From UHGV virus genome UHGV-0120943: a DNA stretch of 33,468 nucleotides; one strand, written 5' to 3'. Shown piece after piece: positions 1-6,503 of the stretch. The notes under the pieces were generated by a model. That model was not told the DNA's origin and ran no database searches. It worked only from the letters and a program-made list of their open reading frames with translations. Each line of letters starts with the position of its first letter. The stretch's first letter is position 1. Position numbers and translations under genes: made by a program. Origin of the DNA: a virus.

Positions 1-127
1 CCATCTCTCCACAGGCAAGAACGGCGTGCCCCGCCGCTAAAATGTTACGAGCGCCGTTTTCATCGGCGTTCGCTATATATCCACAGACCAGGCATCTGAA
101 TTTACTTTGTGACAGGCGATGCACCAT
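1..127 (-). pseudogene. TnpB-like (IS200/IS605 family) C-terminal fragment, truncated; continues past window start
   Basis: Minus-strand translation from 127 down to 1 reads [42 protein letters not shown]..., matching the C-terminal zinc-finger/RuvC-III region of TnpB (CxxCG...NADxNxAxNIL). An in-frame stop lies just upstream at 146-148 and the ATPase gene occupies the space where the N-terminal body would be. Confidence 0.35.
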
Positions 128-211
128 ATGTTGATGCCTTTCATTTTAAAGATTATTATCTAATATTGTTCGATTTAACGCATTGTTCCAAAATAAAATG
201 AGAGTACTTTA

Positions 212-1396
212 ATGATCAGAACAATAGCAATACGTAATTTCAAATCGTTGGTTGATGTCTCGATCAACCTACAAAAATTTAATTGTTTTGTAGGCATGAA
301 CAGTGCGGGTAAAAGTAGCATATTGCAGGCTATCGACTTCATATCGCAACAAATGCATGGATACCTCTACCTCTGGTTAGAAGATCGTGGCTGGGAGTCG
401 AAGGATCTGTACTCTCGAACGAGCAATACTAAAGCGTTTTCTCAACCACTGTTCATAGAAGTTATTTATGATCTGGACGGAAAATGCCTCGTCTGGCAAG
501 GTCATTTCAATCGTAGCCTTATGAGAATGACCCGAGAAAGTATCCATATAGACGGAGAAATGTACCTTGAGGTTATTGATGGGAAGTACAGAACACATGG
601 AAGAAGCTATGACTCAATACCTTTTGAGTATAGTGGTTCAATTTTGGCAACATTAAAAGATAACGTCATTTCTTCTGATGTTATTCATTTTCGTGATGCG
701 CTGAAAAATATCCGCTCTCTCGAGTTACTGTCTCCTCATTTATTGCGAAAGCGCTCCCGTTCGGAAATTAAACCCTCCGGAGTCGGCATTGGTGGAGAAA
801 AACTTTCGGGATACATTGATACGTTAACTCACGATGATAAAAAGATACTTCAACAGATACTCATAAAATTCTACCCACAGATAGTTGGTCTGAGAACGTC
901 GACGTTGAAAGGTGGTTGGAAACGACTGATTATTCAGGAGCGCTTTGTCGATGCAAACGGTGATGAGGCTATTTGCGAGACCGAAGCCGGACAACTCAAT
1001 GACGGATTGTTGCGTATTTTGGCCGTAATTGCTCAGCTAGAGTCCAAAGACGGGTCATTGCTTCTCTTGGATGAGATCGAAAACGGGATTAATCCGCAAG
1101 TTATTGAGCTGCTGGTAGATACTTTGGTTAATGCAAAAACGCAAGTCATTGTGACAACGCATAGCCCAATGATCCTCAATTATCTTGAAGATGATGTTGC
1201 GCGTAAGGGCATCCAGTTTGTTTATAAATCGCCACAAGGGCAAACGCGTGTCCGACCTTTCTTTGAAATGCAGCGTATAAATGAAAAACTTCAGGTCATG
1301 GGGCCTGGTGAAGCATTCATTGATACCGACCTTCAACGGCTGGCGCATGAAAATATAGAGCTTGATGAGATGCGACAAGACCTTATTAAGGATTGA
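212..1396 (+). CDS. ABC/OLD-type ATPase (AAA_15/AAA_21-like), candidate PARIS AriA-like defense ATPase
   Basis: 394-aa ORF. N-terminal IRNFKSL plus Walker A GMNSAGKSS; Walker B/D-loop LLLLDEIENGINPQ; H-loop VIVTTHSPMILN. Stop overlaps the downstream start (TGATG). Confidence 0.8.
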   Translation: MIRTIAIRNFKSLVDVSINLQKFNCFVGMNSAGKSSILQAIDFISQQMHGYLYLWLEDRGWESKDLYSRTSNTKAFSQPLFIEVIYDLDGKCLVWQGHFNRSLMRMTRESIHIDGEMYLEVIDGKYRTHGRSYDSIPFEYSGSILATLKDNVISSDVIHFRDALKNIRSLELLSPHLLRKRSRSEIKPSGVGIGGEKLSGYIDTLTHDDKKILQQILIKFYPQIVGLRTSTLKGGWKRLIIQERFVDANGDEAICETEAGQLNDGLLRILAVIAQLESKDGSLLLLDEIENGINPQVIELLVDTLVNAKTQVIVTTHSPMILNYLEDDVARKGIQFVYKSPQGQTRVRPFFEMQRINEKLQVMGPGEAFIDTDLQRLAHENIELDEMRQDLIKD

Positions 1397-2154
1397 TGAT
1401 GATTGTTGTATTGAGTGGAGAGGGGCCGTCTGATCTCGGCAGTTGTGTAAACGGGCAGGGAGAATGTCTGATAAATGATTTCAACCATGGCCCGATGACA
1501 TATTTTATAGATAAAGAGCTGGAAACATTGCTTGGGTTCTCTCTTCTTGAAATAACGCCAGATCGTTACATTTTTGTCTCAAAATCTGAGCTGATCAGAC
1601 TGACTTCAGCGAAGCGACAAAACCGATCTAGTATGAGTCTGTTAGGGAAGAAAAGGCCTGAAAAAGAGACAGGTTACTTTTATCTCAATGCTTTAATACT
1701 GGGGAATAGAGCTGCTGAGCTTGCAATTGAGCATGAAGATCCCGCAGTGATCGCAGTACTTTTTAGGGACTCTGATGGCACACGTTCTGCGAATTTATCG
1801 CTATGGCAGGATAAAGTAAACTCGATACGTCATGGATTTGATAATTCAGCTATAGGCGAACGCGGTGTTGCCATGGTTCCTAAGCCTAAGTCTGAGAGTT
1901 GGATGCTATGTGTGCTGAGAGATGGTTATGAACACTGCGCAAGGCTGGAAGATTTATCCGGGAATGATAATGTCCCCGACTCAGCTAAAAGGCAGCTGGA
2001 AGAGGCTTTAGGAAGTAATGCTTCGACATCGGCACAGATTCATCACCTCAAGCAAAGTGGCATTGATACGGCAAGACTTGCTGCACAGATGCCGAGTTAT
2101 GACGCGTTCCAACTAAGTTTGGCTGCTGCATTTCGCTTGGCTGCACAGGTTTAG
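1396..2154 (+). CDS. TOPRIM-like (OLD-family/DUF4435-like) partner of the upstream ATPase, candidate AriB-like effector
   Basis: About 252 aa, translationally coupled to the ATPase. N-terminal IVVLSGEGPSD fits the OLD-family TOPRIM hhhxEGxxD motif; a later AVLFRDSDGT supplies a DxD-type acidic motif. Track start 1393 is TTG; ATG at 1396 or 1399 is more likely. Confidence 0.65.
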   Translation: MMIVVLSGEGPSDLGSCVNGQGECLINDFNHGPMTYFIDKELETLLGFSLLEITPDRYIFVSKSELIRLTSAKRQNRSSMSLLGKKRPEKETGYFYLNALILGNRAAELAIEHEDPAVIAVLFRDSDGTRSANLSLWQDKVNSIRHGFDNSAIGERGVAMVPKPKSESWMLCVLRDGYEHCARLEDLSGNDNVPDSAKRQLEEALGSNASTSAQIHHLKQSGIDTARLAAQMPSYDAFQLSLAAAFRLAAQV

Positions 2155-2192
2155 AGTCCGTACATAATTCGGTGCAAATGCCTTTATCTGAC

Positions 2193-2212
2193 GTGACCGC
2201 TCAAGCGGTCAC
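2193..2212. repeat. Perfect inverted repeat GTGACCGC-TCAA-GCGGTCAC, no U-tract
   Basis: 8-bp perfect stem with 4-nt loop, 39 bp after the stop of the TOPRIM-like gene. No T-run on either strand, so not a typical intrinsic terminator. Confidence 0.5.
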
Positions 2213-2539
2213 AGACCTCGATAATAAGCAACTCATAATCATTCGCCAGCCACACCGTATGCTCTCCTGCAAACGAACCATCTATTTTAAGAAAGTCTCT
2301 GGTACTCGAACTTCCGCTTATGGCACAGAGCGGACTGTCATATTAGGTTTGGCTCCACGCCATAGATATGTCAGTTCATATCTTATCTAATACACACAAT
2401 AACTTTCTCATTCTTAGAGAATTATTCTTTTAAGGGTAGGTGTTGACGTTAGAGCAAAAGAATGGTGATTTTTTTGATGTGTATTACGTTGGAACTAATG
2501 GGAATAACTATCTGTTTTCAACGCACAGCTAATTTATCA

Positions 2540-2559
2540 AGGCCCTTTGATCAGGGCCT
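2540..2559 (-). terminator. Hairpin downstream of the minus-strand peptidase/membrane-protein operon
   Basis: AGGCCCT-TTGATC-AGGGCCT, 7-bp stem, 26 bp past the stop at 2585; modest U-run on the minus-strand transcript. Confidence 0.35.
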
Positions 2560-2584
2560 CCGAAAGACTGTTGGACCGAGAGAG

Positions 2585-3190
2585 TTACTTGCGTTTAAAA
2601 AGGTATTTTGTCACGACCAGCACGAGGCCGAATACCTCTGTCAAAGTACCGCCCATGTACAACTGGAGCGTTAAGTCTTTAAATACAAGCCATCCAGCAC
2701 CAGTGGCAAAAAATACACCATTCATTATCAGAAGTTGGCAAGCAAGGATAATCAGGAACCATTTGCCATAGCGTTTTTTTAGATCGATTTCAGCTTCAAA
2801 ATCTTTGTTGTTGAGTTGTTTGCGCTCATGCTCGGTATCAAGTGAATCCACCTGCTTCACAGATGTGAACTCGGTCAAGATTTTGCTCTCAGTACGGGTG
2901 ACTTGTTGAGATGGTGTAGCAGTTGGAATTCTTTTGATTGACGCAGCTACAGCCATTTTGCGAGCTTCGGCAGCTCTTTTTCTGGCTATTCCGTGAATAC
3001 GGGCAGACGGTTTTTTTGGAGCGTGCGAAACCTTTGGCTGAGGTGAAGTTTCGTCGGGAGACTGAACCGGGGTTTCATCGTCCCCCGGCTCAACCTCTTC
3101 TGCTAACTGACGGTGTAGGTTGAGGGAATCCTTCAGTCGGCGTGCAACTTCCTGTTTGAAACGGCTGTTAAAATCGTCATCCGATGGCAT
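2585..3190 (-). CDS. Membrane-anchored protein with charged low-complexity N-terminal region and two C-terminal hydrophobic helices; candidate effector
   Basis: 201-aa ORF starting 9 bp after the ImmA-like stop. C-terminus WFLIILACQLLIMNGVFFATGAGWLVF ... EVFGLVLVVTKYLF is predicted transmembrane. Confidence 0.6.
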   Translation of the reverse strand: MPSDDDFNSRFKQEVARRLKDSLNLHRQLAEEVEPGDDETPVQSPDETSPQPKVSHAPKKPSARIHGIARKRAAEARKMAVAASIKRIPTATPSQQVTRTESKILTEFTSVKQVDSLDTEHERKQLNNKDFEAEIDLKKRYGKWFLIILACQLLIMNGVFFATGAGWLVFKDLTLQLYMGGTLTEVFGLVLVVTKYLFKRK

Positions 3191-3199
3191 TCTAAAGCG

Positions 3200-3688
3200 T
3201 TACCCCAACCTCAAGTTCTTTAAACGATAAGTCATCGCATCGTCAGATACGCCAAAATAATGCGCCATTATATAACTTGGTTGGCCGTCAGCGTGCAGTT
3301 TTCTGACCTCATCAACCGGCATCAGAAGTTCTGCTGCGAACTTGTTCGCAAAAATTTCATCAGGATGCGTTCCGGCGCTTGCGGTTTCGCCACGTAAATC
3401 AACGTACTCATATTCATCACTATGCGATGCTTGCCGGGCGATGTAATGCCCCAACTCATGCCCACATGAAAAACGTTGACGAACTTTGTTGTCATCACTG
3501 TTTAGAAAGATCGCTGGATCTTGATCTTTTTGTTTAATCAGTGCGCCAGAAACTTTCCCAGGAAGATCGGTAATAAAAACATCTAATCCCATGTCGTGAG
3601 CAATTTTCGCTGGATCAACAGGGAAACCACGCCCGCACCAGAACGTGTCCAGCACTCGCCGGGCGTGCTCTCTTGGGTTGGTAGCCAT
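3200..3688 (-). CDS. ImmA/IrrE-family zinc metallopeptidase (HEXXH)
   Basis: 162-aa ORF with HELGHY zinc-binding motif in the FSCGHELGHYIARQ context typical of ImmA/IrrE (COG2856/DUF955). GGAGGAG Shine-Dalgarno upstream of the ATG. Confidence 0.8.
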   Translation of the reverse strand: MATNPREHARRVLDTFWCGRGFPVDPAKIAHDMGLDVFITDLPGKVSGALIKQKDQDPAIFLNSDDNKVRQRFSCGHELGHYIARQASHSDEYEYVDLRGETASAGTHPDEIFANKFAAELLMPVDEVRKLHADGQPSYIMAHYFGVSDDAMTYRLKNLRLG

Positions 3689-4164
3689 AGCTCCTCCAGT
3701 TACTGCATTACGATTGTTGGTCGAAATATAGACAACATGTTCCGTACCACATTCCTGTAAAAGTGCAAATTCTGCACTTCTGGTACGATATTAACTGTTA
3801 GTAGTAAAGTCTTCCAGATAAATCACTTTAAAATCGTGTGAATTGCTTGCTTTTTACGCTGCATTGTGGATGGCTCAATGTTTCCAGTAAAAACATACAT
3901 GATAATCATGAGATTAGTGGTTTTTTAGCATGATCTTAAGCCTGGTGCAGAAAATATCCCTTTAACGTATACCGCATTTTATGTCACACGCCAGAAGCCA
4001 CACCCCAAGCGGCCTGATAAGAAAGCATCTACTGTTTGAAGGATTTTGAAGCTTTTTCCCGTGACAAGATCCAGTTAACTGTTAGAATTCTTCGAGCCGA
4101 ATCGGTGGTTTTAGCCCATTCGTTAAAAATAAAAAGCATAAATATCATAGAGTAAGTTCAAAAC

Positions 4165-4932
4165 ATGCAGGCTCAACCTAAGACTAAACACCAAGAATTG
4201 GTCGATAAGCTATCATTCTACATAGACACCAAAACGCCTATAGAAGCTTTTGTGGCAGCAGATATTCAGCATGAGATTGGTTCTTTACCACCAGAATCCC
4301 GTTCTTATGTTACTGCTTTGCTTAAGGTTGCACTTAAAGATCATGATGCCGCTGTTGAGTGGTTCAAAGACGCCATGATGACTTCTGGTGATAATTCGGC
4401 GATAGTTGCTGGTAACTATGTGGGCTACCTGAGCTGCTCTGGTCATAATCTTTTCCATAGAATGGAAGTGTTCCGCCTGGTTGACGTATTCTGTACGCAA
4501 CGGATCAGAAAAATGGCGCGGAATGCTGCTTATTGCATCGGTAACGATAGGCTTGTTAAAAAGTATACCGTTATGATGAAAGCCTTACTTGATGGCGAAG
4601 AGCGAGATAGTATTGAACGTGAGGGCGCACAAATGGCAGAAGCTATTGTAAAATTCAAAGAGGCCACAGAGCTAACCTCATCTGAAATCGAGCAATTATG
4701 TGATGCTGCTGAACAGATTGCTAACAACCACGGCGTAAATTGTATCGGCATCGAATACTTCCTCAGTGGCGGATATGACAATGCAATTATCCTTTTCGCT
4801 GAAACTGAAGATTCCGATACACTTACGACGATGAATCTTGAACTAGTTGATCTTCTTGCTCATGATACTTACATTGACCGGCCTTTTACTTCGTGGTTTA
4901 AAAGCGCTGAAATGAAAGGAGCTGAACTATGA
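4165..4932 (+). CDS. Hypothetical protein, first gene of an overlapping two-gene module
   Basis: 255-aa ORF in the low-GC island; stop overlaps the start of the next ORF (ATGA). No family recognised. Confidence 0.6.
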   Translation: MQAQPKTKHQELVDKLSFYIDTKTPIEAFVAADIQHEIGSLPPESRSYVTALLKVALKDHDAAVEWFKDAMMTSGDNSAIVAGNYVGYLSCSGHNLFHRMEVFRLVDVFCTQRIRKMARNAAYCIGNDRLVKKYTVMMKALLDGEERDSIEREGAQMAEAIVKFKEATELTSSEIEQLCDAAEQIANNHGVNCIGIEYFLSGGYDNAIILFAETEDSDTLTTMNLELVDLLAHDTYIDRPFTSWFKSAEMKGAEL

Positions 4933-5327
4933 GCGTAACTGGTCAGAACTTCATTGAGTTTGCAGATAAATGCATCGCATTTGGAGATGAAATAGGATTC
5001 AGAAACGCGGTGGGACGTTCATACTATGGCGTGTTTCATGAAATCTGCAGCAAGTTAGAGCACTGCTACGTACTGACATCTCATGAAGGTGTGCGTAAGT
5101 ATTTAATGAGTGAAGCTCAGTGTAAGAAAGAGCCTTACGATAAAACAGCCCTGAGAAAGATTGGTGTCCTTTTACATCATCTGCATGTTCAAAGGAAATG
5201 GGCTGATTACACACTTGAGCGTGACTTGACCAAGGCTGACGCCGAATCTGCGATGAAATCCGCAAAGGAAGCCATGAAGCAAATCAAGACAATGCATGAG
5301 ACGGTTTATCCGCCTTCCGCTGCATAA
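4929..5327 (+). CDS. Hypothetical protein with possible HEPN-like R-x6-H motif
   Basis: 132-aa ORF coupled to the upstream gene. R30-SYYGVF-H37 matches the Rx4-6H pattern of HEPN RNases, but its N-terminal position is atypical; tentative. Confidence 0.55.
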   Translation: MSVTGQNFIEFADKCIAFGDEIGFRNAVGRSYYGVFHEICSKLEHCYVLTSHEGVRKYLMSEAQCKKEPYDKTALRKIGVLLHHLHVQRKWADYTLERDLTKADAESAMKSAKEAMKQIKTMHETVYPPSAA

Positions 5328-5343
5328 GTAACATAGTCCTTAG

Positions 5344-5363
5344 CCCCACCCTGGTGGGGTTTT
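5344..5363 (+). terminator. Rho-independent terminator
   Basis: CCCCAC-CCTG-GTGGGG followed by TTTT, 17 bp after the stop at 5327. Confidence 0.6.
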
Positions 5364-5610
5364 ACGCCTGGCTGCTGAGGCAGGTGTGTTTAAACAAATC
5401 CCCGCGAGATGCAGTGGGTCAGTTCTTTTTCCCTTTTCGTCGAGCGCTTCTTTTACCCACTCTTCAAGTTTCATTTTGCGAGCTCTGGCGCTGTTGTTCC
5501 ATACTGCTTTTGAGAGCCGTTACAGGAACGCCTTTTTCTCTCCAGTCATTATCTTTCCCTGGAGTACTGATAAAGACGACTCCATCAACAAACATTTTAT
5601 GATGTGATGT

Positions 5611-5638
5611 ACAAAAAGAAAAATCCCGCTATGCGGGG
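5611..5638 (-). terminator. Rho-independent terminator for minus-strand transcription
   Basis: Hairpin CCCGC-TAT-GCGGG; on the minus strand it is followed by UUUUUCUUUUU. Confidence 0.45.
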
Positions 5639-5819
5639 TTAACCTAATTTTTTTTTCGCTTCTTACTTCTTATCCCACATTCCATGCATTCTTTCTATCT
5701 CAGCATCAGTTAAATCATCCAGCCCAACAATTTCAGAGCCGTGACGATAAACGAAAACGCACACACTCTCCAACGTTAGTCAAAAATAGTCACGCGCAGC
5801 GCAGCACCCGCGCTCACTC

Positions 5820-5850
5820 GATTATTTATAATACCTATTGATTATTTATA
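5820..5850 (+). promoter_or_regulatory. Two 11-bp direct repeats (GATTATTTATA) overlapping a consensus -10 (TATAAT); candidate operator/promoter
   Basis: Repeats at 5820-5830 and 5840-5850, 20 bp centre to centre; TATAAT at 5827-5832; no good -35. Confidence 0.35.
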
Positions 5851-5867
5851 TATCATATGGGGATATT

Positions 5868-6503
5868 ATGAATGGTTTTTACGACGACTGGCCTGAAACG
5901 TTCGTCACCCGACTGGACATGTTGCGAGCGCTGGATAACAGAGGGGCAACCCGGAGACTCTACACAAAACGTACAGGGGCGATTTACAACGCGCTGGCTG
6001 ACGAGGTTCGTGATGCCGTGGCTGGATTCAATACCAGTGAACTCGACTTAGGACCACTCTACCGGTATTACAAACGTGGAGGAGAGGGCGAAGTGCTGGC
6101 AGACACACTGATCGCACTGGCACCGCCTGTGTGCAGGCGCGTAATGATTTCCCCTGACGTATATACAATACCGTACCTGTTTTTTGCGCTGTTGATAGCG
6201 CGAGGAGAGGACGACGATGCACGTGATTTTTTCAATATGATGATGCGGCCGCTAATCGTGGCGTACCGGTTCAAACAACTGGCGCGTTACCTGGGAACAA
6301 AGGGCGGAGGGAGGCCACAGCACAGGCTTAAAGACGAGGCATTACAGATTGCAGAGGTTTTTTTCACAAATAACCCCCACGCACGGGTTAGTGCGGCGGT
6401 GGCACGTATTAACGAAATTCTCGTAAAAAAATATGCGGACGTTCCGGCGGAATCAACAATCAGAAAATGGTTAACCCCTGTTTATGGAAATGAAAAAAAA
6501 TAA
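5868..6503 (+). CDS. Hypothetical prophage protein
   Basis: Track ORF starts at TTG 5838; ATG at 5868 has a GGGGA Shine-Dalgarno 6 nt upstream. No family recognised. Confidence 0.6.
   Translation: MNGFYDDWPETFVTRLDMLRALDNRGATRRLYTKRTGAIYNALADEVRDAVAGFNTSELDLGPLYRYYKRGGEGEVLADTLIALAPPVCRRVMISPDVYTIPYLFFALLIARGEDDDARDFFNMMMRPLIVAYRFKQLARYLGTKGGGRPQHRLKDEALQIAEVFFTNNPHARVSAAVARINEILVKKYADVPAESTIRKWLTPVYGNEKK

Follow-up and report, generated by a model that had tools for sequence, protein, structure and literature searches.

The insertion sequence IS609 of Escherichia coli belongs to the IS200/IS605 group and is annotated in K-12 ('insertion sequence:IS609') as a 1748-bp element between ydcL and ydcO, with the tnpB gene insQ (b1432) and a tnpA pseudogene (yncK). 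In ISDra2, the 3′ end of tnpB together with the right end (RE) of the element is the segment that gives rise to a guide RNA of ∼150 nt, the omega RNA or reRNA, whose last ∼16 nt come from the flanking DNA (PMC8612924). Palindrome-associated transposable elements (PATEs) lack a protein of their own and may encode an omega-RNA scaffold that can serve in trans only, and they are thought to provide omega RNAs to TnpBs encoded elsewhere (PMC10055086). PATEs keep both a left and a right end, and TnpA supplied in trans can move them. RAGATH-18 RNAs (RF03064) represent the reRNA core of IS607 TnpBs and guide these proteins (PMC11061315).

Here we analysed a viral genome of 33,468 nt (UHGV-0120943; hereafter the window), which holds a fragment of IS609 at its left edge. 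Over the last 222 bp of the element, IS609 and the fragment are 94–96% identical in DNA, which settles membership, and both have the RE terminus ...GGAGGATGTCAA, a subterminal hairpin, the TTTAT target and the tnpB frame with its stop codon. Unlike IS609 itself, the fragment preserves only 13% of the 1748-bp element. It retains the segment corresponding to the ISDra2 guide RNA, the same one that covaries strongly in the IS609 family, but it has no TnpB in cis and no evident promoter, its inferred TAM is TTTAT and not the TTGAT of ISDra2, and its RNA is only putative. The fragment resembles PATEs in being protein-less, but it has kept the RE alone and is immobile, because it has neither a left end nor a TnpA. 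With one end only, it was ruled out as a PATE or any other non-autonomous IS200/IS605 derivative, and in the absence of a protein it was ruled out as a TldR. Its minus strand, from CUGUGGAGAG to CUCGUUGAAGCAGGAA, aligns to the whole RAGATH-18 model, but its 26.1 bits fall below the gathering score of 44.9 (E = 0.017 for 801 nt searched). Moreover, the central stem-loop of RAGATH-18 measures 44 nt as opposed to 17 nt in the fragment, where the motif lies inside an IS605-type coding sequence. Falling short of the Rfam gathering score, the fragment was not accepted as a member of that family.

The minus-strand frame of window 1–145 translates into a 48-residue peptide, with an in-frame stop at 146–148. 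This peptide matched Pfam PF07282 (Cas12f1-like TNB, the zinc-ribbon domain of TnpB; E = 2e-6, 28.3 bits, cut-off 26.3), and the DNA of window 1–120 matched genes annotated 'RNA-guided endonuclease InsQ/TnpB family protein' at 96.7% identity (E = 3e-47), which is far beyond chance. Matches to insQ over these bases were present in 4,900 of 5,426 complete E. coli genomes. The encoded stretch corresponds to approximately residues 345–384 of the 402-residue TnpB/InsQ and includes the second zinc-ribbon CxxC, the RuvC-III motif NAD(V/E)NGARNI and the start of the C-terminal tail. Aligned to a 1747-bp reference copy of IS609 (strain RM14723, between yfeD and gltX), it covers IS positions 1526–1645. 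By these alignments, window 1–120 is the inner part of a broken IS609 (tnpB/insQ) copy. A preliminary description of the locus had read the minus strand as the zinc-finger/RuvC-III end of an IS200/IS605 TnpB, with a stop at 146–148, an adjacent ATPase gene and the N-terminal body of the protein missing. All of this agrees with our results: the stop is exactly where it was quoted, the neighbouring ORF is an ATPase gene (Table 1) and 86% of TnpB is absent. The extent given there, 1–127, is correct up to base 120. Here the TnpB and IS homology stops, and bases 121–127, like all of 121–148, are unrelated DNA that merely happens to be in frame.

Window 1–3928 shares 99.85% identity with a lambdoid prophage in E. 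coli GF131 (NZ_CP172134.1), and the sequence to the left of window base 1 was extrapolated from contigs with this identity over that interval (the 26-kb GF131 locus is referred to as L001). In the related contigs, the fragment extends for another 102 bp to the left of the window, comprising 59 nt of tnpB coding sequence up to the native stop codon and a 43-nt RE. A leftward extension and an alignment to TnpB had been proposed as checks; the former led to the native tnpB stop and an IS right end, not to an unrelated intact gene, and the latter confirmed homology to intact TnpB. Of the IS200/IS605 end hairpins that were to be searched for, the right one is there, in subterminal position, and the left end is absent. 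The full fragment in GF131 is 222 bp long and represents the last 222 bp of IS609, with 58 of the 402 tnpB codons (345–402), the stop codon and the 43-bp RE. Its identity to IS positions 1526–1747 of the 1747-bp reference is 94.6%. Among intact E. coli IS609 copies, the best reach 96.4%, and none of the 5,426 complete E. coli genomes holds a closer one.

What is missing from the fragment is the left end, tnpA and tnpB codons 1–344, that is, the N-terminal 86% of the protein with RuvC-I, RuvC-II and the first CxxC. A BLAST search of the window and L001 with the whole reference IS (word size 7) returned positions 1526–1747 only, and no left end, tnpA or other IS609 sequence was found in the 33.5-kb window, the 26-kb GF131 locus or 12 kb leftward. 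A TnpB nuclease combines a D-E-D triad and a four-Cys zinc finger in one polypeptide, of which only the third Asp and the second CxxC are left. With RuvC-I, RuvC-II and half of the zinc finger lost, no nuclease can come from the fragment. The PGAP annotation of the locus is likewise that of a pseudogene ('zinc ribbon domain-containing protein; incomplete; missing N-terminus'). The fragment is thus a piece of IS609 and not a functional member: its sequence, RE and target site are those of the element, and the left end, tnpA and a full-length TnpB are lacking. This kind of object is already known, with a described insertion sequence and an existing pseudogene annotation, and truncated IS copies at the edges of variable islands are commonplace.

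Table 1. Features at the left edge of the window (window coordinates)
Feature	Position	Strand	Evidence
3′ coding fragment of IS609 tnpB (insQ)	1–120	−	translation; PF07282; 96.7% DNA identity; alignments to intact copies
Inner breakpoint: IS609 interior ...GACAGGCGAT fused bluntly to cassette GCACCATATG...	120/121		homology ends
Non-IS bases in frame with the tnpB fragment, to the stop at 146–148	121–148	−	translation
PDC-M25 candidate defence cassette, adjoining the remnant and not part of the IS	121–2289	+	PADLOC; Pfam; DNA identity
Promoter-like site of the cassette, TTGATG-17-TATTAT	131–159	+	sequence; left intact by the breakpoint
PDC-M25A, ABC/AAA_21 ATPase	212–1396	+	PADLOC E = 3.3e-157; Pfam AAA_21/AAA_15
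PDC-M25B	1393–2154	+	PADLOC E = 5.3e-96

At its outer end, just outside the window, the fragment runs into phage DNA. Four sister prophages without the IS match GF131 at 99.2% identity as far as the last base in front of the RE, beyond which the sequences diverge. Read on the IS strand, the empty site in these prophages is ...CAATTTAT/CCAGTG..., and the occupied site in GF131, L005/L006 and L099 reads ...CCACGTCCTTCAGGGCGCGGAGGATGTCAA/CCAG, with the slash marking the junction. The RE itself carries the subterminal hairpin and the expected terminus next to unrelated flanking DNA. To place this terminus in its family, we drew 65 distinct REs from 80 fetched related loci in Proteobacteria (L007–L086). 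All of them, from Enterobacterales to Burkholderiales, end in ...GGA(T/C)GTCAA followed by unrelated flank, and this invariant terminus (...GGATGTCAA) characterises IS609-like elements across the Proteobacteria. In some Cupriavidus and Gallionella copies, an extra hairpin is inserted in the RE. TTTAT directly precedes the left end, on the 5′ side, in two independent IS609 copies, the one between yfeD and gltX (compared with the empty site of K-12) and the one between ydcL and ydcO. The fragment, too, lies directly 3′ of a TTTAT target/TAM, without duplication of the target. Judged by these comparisons, the outer end is a genuine transposition junction, located directly after TTTAT, within the final 59 nt of an ORF6N gene of the prophage.

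This ORF6N (KilA-N-like) gene (L001 11163–11957) ends 43 bp before window base 1. Its last 19 codons and stop codon are now read from the RE of IS609, so that VDILRALKDVDSCYVQAVV replaces the native DKLMVMGKKSAISVANSAF and the ORF6N protein has an odd C-terminus. By coincidence, the tail swap leaves the length of the protein unchanged at 264 aa. The same ORF6N–RE fusion is present in Escherichia whittamii. Among the 5,426 complete E. coli genomes, the ORF6N/RE junction occurs only in GF131, where the IS is already truncated, and 444 have an uninterrupted ORF6N site. The intermediate, with an entire IS609 inside ORF6N, was found neither among complete E. coli genomes nor in IMG/VR or the JGI metagenomes, and the exact ORF6N/RE junction pattern gave 0 matches in viral_contigs and 0 in metagenome_contigs.

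The inner end of the fragment has a different character. IS homology ends at base 120 and cassette homology starts at base 121, 91 bp upstream of the start of the PDC-M25 ATPase gene, with no microhomology seen at the junction. From base 121 onwards, the cassette DNA is 96.8% identical to a P4-like island of Klebsiella oxytoca (121–2289) and 92.9% identical to the chromosome of a Pectobacterium (121–2348). The Klebsiella and Pectobacterium cassettes have extra upstream sequence in common that is absent from the window, as is a direct repeat flanking the cassette in Pectobacterium, and neither has IS609 within 6 kb. Because the homologies abut at this base and the other cassettes continue further upstream, 120/121 is a junction unique to this lineage, and the inner end is, on present alignments, an illegitimate break. 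This point is also the left edge of the variable defence island. The preliminary description had placed the remnant at that edge and had offered it as a sign of where the cargo was truncated, and both statements hold: at 120/121, a breakpoint separates IS609 from the PDC-M25 cassette.

The surroundings of the cassette are variable. Beyond base 3928, the window and the GF131 prophage become mosaic (92–95% identity, with rearrangements); the DNA between 3928 and ∼6036 differs, with window 3929–6035 standing opposite L001 15929–16828. The window thus stems from a close relative of the GF131 prophage and not from GF131 itself, and the mosaicism of the hotspot extends to prophages that have both the IS609 fossil and PDC-M25. 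In the sister prophage of EC28, the same place is occupied by an unrelated 8.9-kb cargo that includes a SAM methyltransferase and a SMEK-domain protein. No homologues of the PDC-M25 genes with at least 65% DNA identity were found in the phage and plasmid collections, in which the cassette region matched only through a short dispersed repeat and an ImmA/IrrE gene. Short dispersed repeats lie just downstream of PDC-M25B (window 2205–2394). One part of them, window ∼2313–2394, is similar to the 'left/right inverted repeats' on either side of the cargo in the P2 Z-region hotspot (AJ512683.1) and has ∼76% matches in more than 600 Klebsiella and E. coli plasmids; another, window 2205–2251, recurs upstream of the Pectobacterium cassette as a direct repeat. 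These repeats may be recombination handles that move the cassette between hotspots. Further downstream, on the minus strand of window 2585–3688, a 162-aa ImmA/IrrE metallopeptidase (Pfam Peptidase_M78, E = 8e-18; PADLOC CapP-like, E = 2e-25) precedes a 201-aa protein without a family match. This pair is shared at 98% with Escherichia phage vB_EcoM-705R4 and is possibly a second regulatory or defence pair in the island.

The two junctions suggest a simple history. IS609 would have inserted by single-strand 'peel and paste', the usual route of its family, directly 3′ of TTTAT in the last 59 nt of ORF6N, a KilA-N/antirepressor-like gene in the nin-region hotspot of a lambdoid prophage. A single illegitimate, blunt-ended deletion or recombination would then have eliminated the left end together with tnpA and tnpB codons 1–344, joining tnpB codon 345 to the point upstream of the ATPase gene where the fragment now ends. 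We infer this order, insertion first and then one deletion, from the state of the two ends. All 24 of the 24 contigs we read that encode the exact ATPase protein show the GF131-like local arrangement, and E. whittamii has it as well, with a 99%-identical ATPase. The 120/121 junction in E. whittamii is identical, too. As both junctions of its copy are the same, the module arose once. The module of ORF6N, fossil and PDC-M25 has since spread by phage recombination among E. coli and E. whittamii prophages while slowly gaining substitutions. The E. whittamii copy has three, one of which breaks a conserved helix. Compared with intact IS609, window 1–120 has four differences, of which three are nonsynonymous (Q>L, T>I and V>E) and one is synonymous.

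We also asked whether the fragment retains the omega-RNA scaffold. An alignment of the last 240 nt of 55 related elements, evaluated with RNAalifold and a RAGATH-18-like pairing, defined 45 pairs. In this alignment, 96.1% of the cells are paired, and compensatory changes were observed for 26 of the 45 pairs. The covariation score was 0.354, compared with 0.07–0.10 for slid partners, and none of 500 shuffles reached this value. A helix within the AAGHAV codons changes from GC to CG or AU, with the protein sequence changing alongside so that the pairing is kept. The last ∼200 nt of the IS609 family thus hold a conserved, covarying RNA structure, as an omega-RNA scaffold should. Window 1–120 is also the 5′ part of this scaffold region, and 83 nt separate the truncation point from the first helix with compensatory changes, which lies 3′ of it; the scaffold is thus present as a whole in the fragment. 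In the GF131 remnant, two of the 45 pairs are broken and all helices are kept, with A·C mismatches in two of them; in E. whittamii, a substitution breaks Ha, a strongly covarying helix and the best supported one. The single-sequence fold of the fragment was not significant (z = −1.5), and comparative analysis alone was informative here. In Rfam, three families matched the minus strand below threshold: RAGATH-18, sot0042 and HgcC. The latter two presumably also overlap tnpB 3′ ends. There was no gathering-level match on the fragment, nor was there one for RAGATH-18 in a gathering-mode scan of the window. The only Rfam match at gathering level in the window was sRNA-Xcc1 (RF02221) on the minus strand of 33031–33116 (69.3 bits; gathering score 53), adjoining a 251-aa minus-strand ORF (32239–32994).

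GF131 also has an IS609 copy elsewhere on the chromosome, which we located by walking from sodB and ansP to ydcO. This resident copy (L090 5543–7265, between ydcO and ydcL) has an intact, full-length insQ of 402 aa with the D/E/D triad and both CxxC pairs, and a tnpA pseudogene with an internal stop. The scaffold region of the resident insQ differs from the remnant at ∼10 of 222 positions. tnpA is a pseudogene in K-12 (yncK) and RM14723 as well, as in GF131. In E. coli, the IS609 family therefore seems to survive as a non-autonomous element with tnpB alone.

We considered three further readings of the fragment, two of which concern the DNA on its right. The preliminary description had suggested that the remnant could show how the cargo was mobilised. 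An IS609 derivative that TnpA could move would have brought the cassette, and the fragment would be the surviving end of the vehicle. It is true that the fragment directly adjoins the cassette and that the block sits in a recombination hotspot whose content varies between sister prophages. However, neither the window nor L001 contains a left end, tnpA or a second IS609 end, the outer end points away from the cargo and adjoins a true TTTAT target of the phage DNA, and the side that faces the cargo is an internal break in tnpB and not a transposon end. In addition, the 93–97% identical cassettes of K. oxytoca and Pectobacterium have no IS609 within 6 kb, and instead come with extra upstream sequence and flanking direct repeats. 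A cargo transposon was accordingly rejected after the sensitive BLAST search had returned no left end or second IS end in the window and the 26-kb GF131 locus, and we regard a role of IS609 as the carrier as very improbable: without a left end or tnpA, and with the cassettes elsewhere free of IS609, the IS marks a breakpoint and did not carry or mobilise the cargo. It is scarcely credible, too, that an ORF of 60–62 codons starting in cassette-derived DNA yields a small, functional zinc-ribbon-like peptide. An ATG (128–126) or GTG (124–122) does lie ∼9 nt downstream of an AAGG, and two gene callers report a gene of 60–61 aa with a weak PF07282 match. Yet the zinc ribbon has lost one of its two CxxC pairs, which makes TnpB-like folding impossible, no promoter-like site was found, PGAP calls a pseudogene and most of the changes relative to intact IS609 in window 1–120 alter the protein (three of four). 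The ORF is spurious; the stray 60-codon 'zinc ribbon' reported by gene callers results from the IS609 fossil being in frame with bases 121–148.

The third reading deserves a closer look, since it concerns the part of IS609 that the fragment has kept. A minus-strand transcript could be a complete omega RNA, made of the scaffold and ∼16 nt of ORF6N guide (CCAGCGUCAUACUUCG), and could be loaded in trans by chromosomal InsQ/TnpB. Such an RNA would run for ∼150–240 nt and end ∼16 nt past the RE terminus ...GGAUGUCAA. It would direct the cutting of ORF6N alleles that lack the IS and are flanked by TTTAT when sister phages enter, or serve as an InsQ decoy. Its target would be TTTAT followed by CCAGCGTCATACTTCG; a perfect match would read TTTAT followed by CCAGCGTCATACTTCGCAG, and the natural allele reads CCAGTG.... 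In favour of this idea are the compensatory changes in the last ∼200 nt of the family, the position of the break 5′ of the first compensatory helix with so few pairs lost, the Rfam matches below threshold and the presence in GF131 of a full-length insQ with a closely similar scaffold. The precedents of ISDra2, where the guide consists of the tnpB 3′ end, the RE and ∼16 nt of flank (PMC8612924), of the protein-less PATEs (PMC10055086) and of RAGATH-18 (PMC11061315) point the same way. Against it, no sigma-70-like promoter was found on the minus strand within 280 nt upstream of the fragment, and the tnpB mRNA from which the RNA would natively derive has been lost. Furthermore, the would-be guide CCAGCGUC... 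has one mismatch to the empty-site alleles (CCAGTGTC...) in all 444 complete E. coli genomes, at position 5, next to the TAM. Mismatches so near the TAM are poorly tolerated in TnpB targeting. The break in Ha in E. whittamii and the A·C mismatches in GF131 look like drift and not selection, the single-sequence fold is unremarkable, and much of the covariation sits in the RE hairpin, which doubles as a DNA signal for TnpA. Taken together, we consider an orphan guide RNA unlikely, and it is quite improbable that read-through or cryptic minus-strand RNA from the fragment, loaded in trans, acts as a weapon against IS-free sister phages or as an InsQ decoy.

The fragment is therefore very probably an inert, 222-bp fossil of IS609. 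We infer its inertness from several signs of neutral drift, namely the lack of a minus-strand promoter, the guide mismatch, the helix breaks, the nonsynonymous changes, the distance to the nearest intact copy (96.4% identity) and the plain fold. Counter to a plain fossil, its preservation exceeds what a random relic would require: every covarying omega-RNA helix is kept, with 43 of 45 pairs, which is within the range of full-length copies. GF131, with the same fragment, also has the full-length insQ with its intact triad, and on sequence alone a residual role as RNA is conceivable. The only demonstrable present effects of the fragment are passive, in that ORF6N owes its last 19 codons and its stop to it and that it marks the left junction of the island.

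For the prophage, these results locate the left edge of the variable defence island with single-base precision (window 120/121) and show that the PDC-M25 cassette was not delivered by IS609. The fragment would be more than a fossil only if it gave rise to a working guide RNA used in trans; in that case, the prophage would have an RNA-guided weapon or an InsQ decoy adjoining its PDC-M25 cassette. Beyond this locus, the covarying guide-RNA structure, the invariant terminus and the TTTAT target of the IS609 relatives may aid the annotation of TnpB elements.
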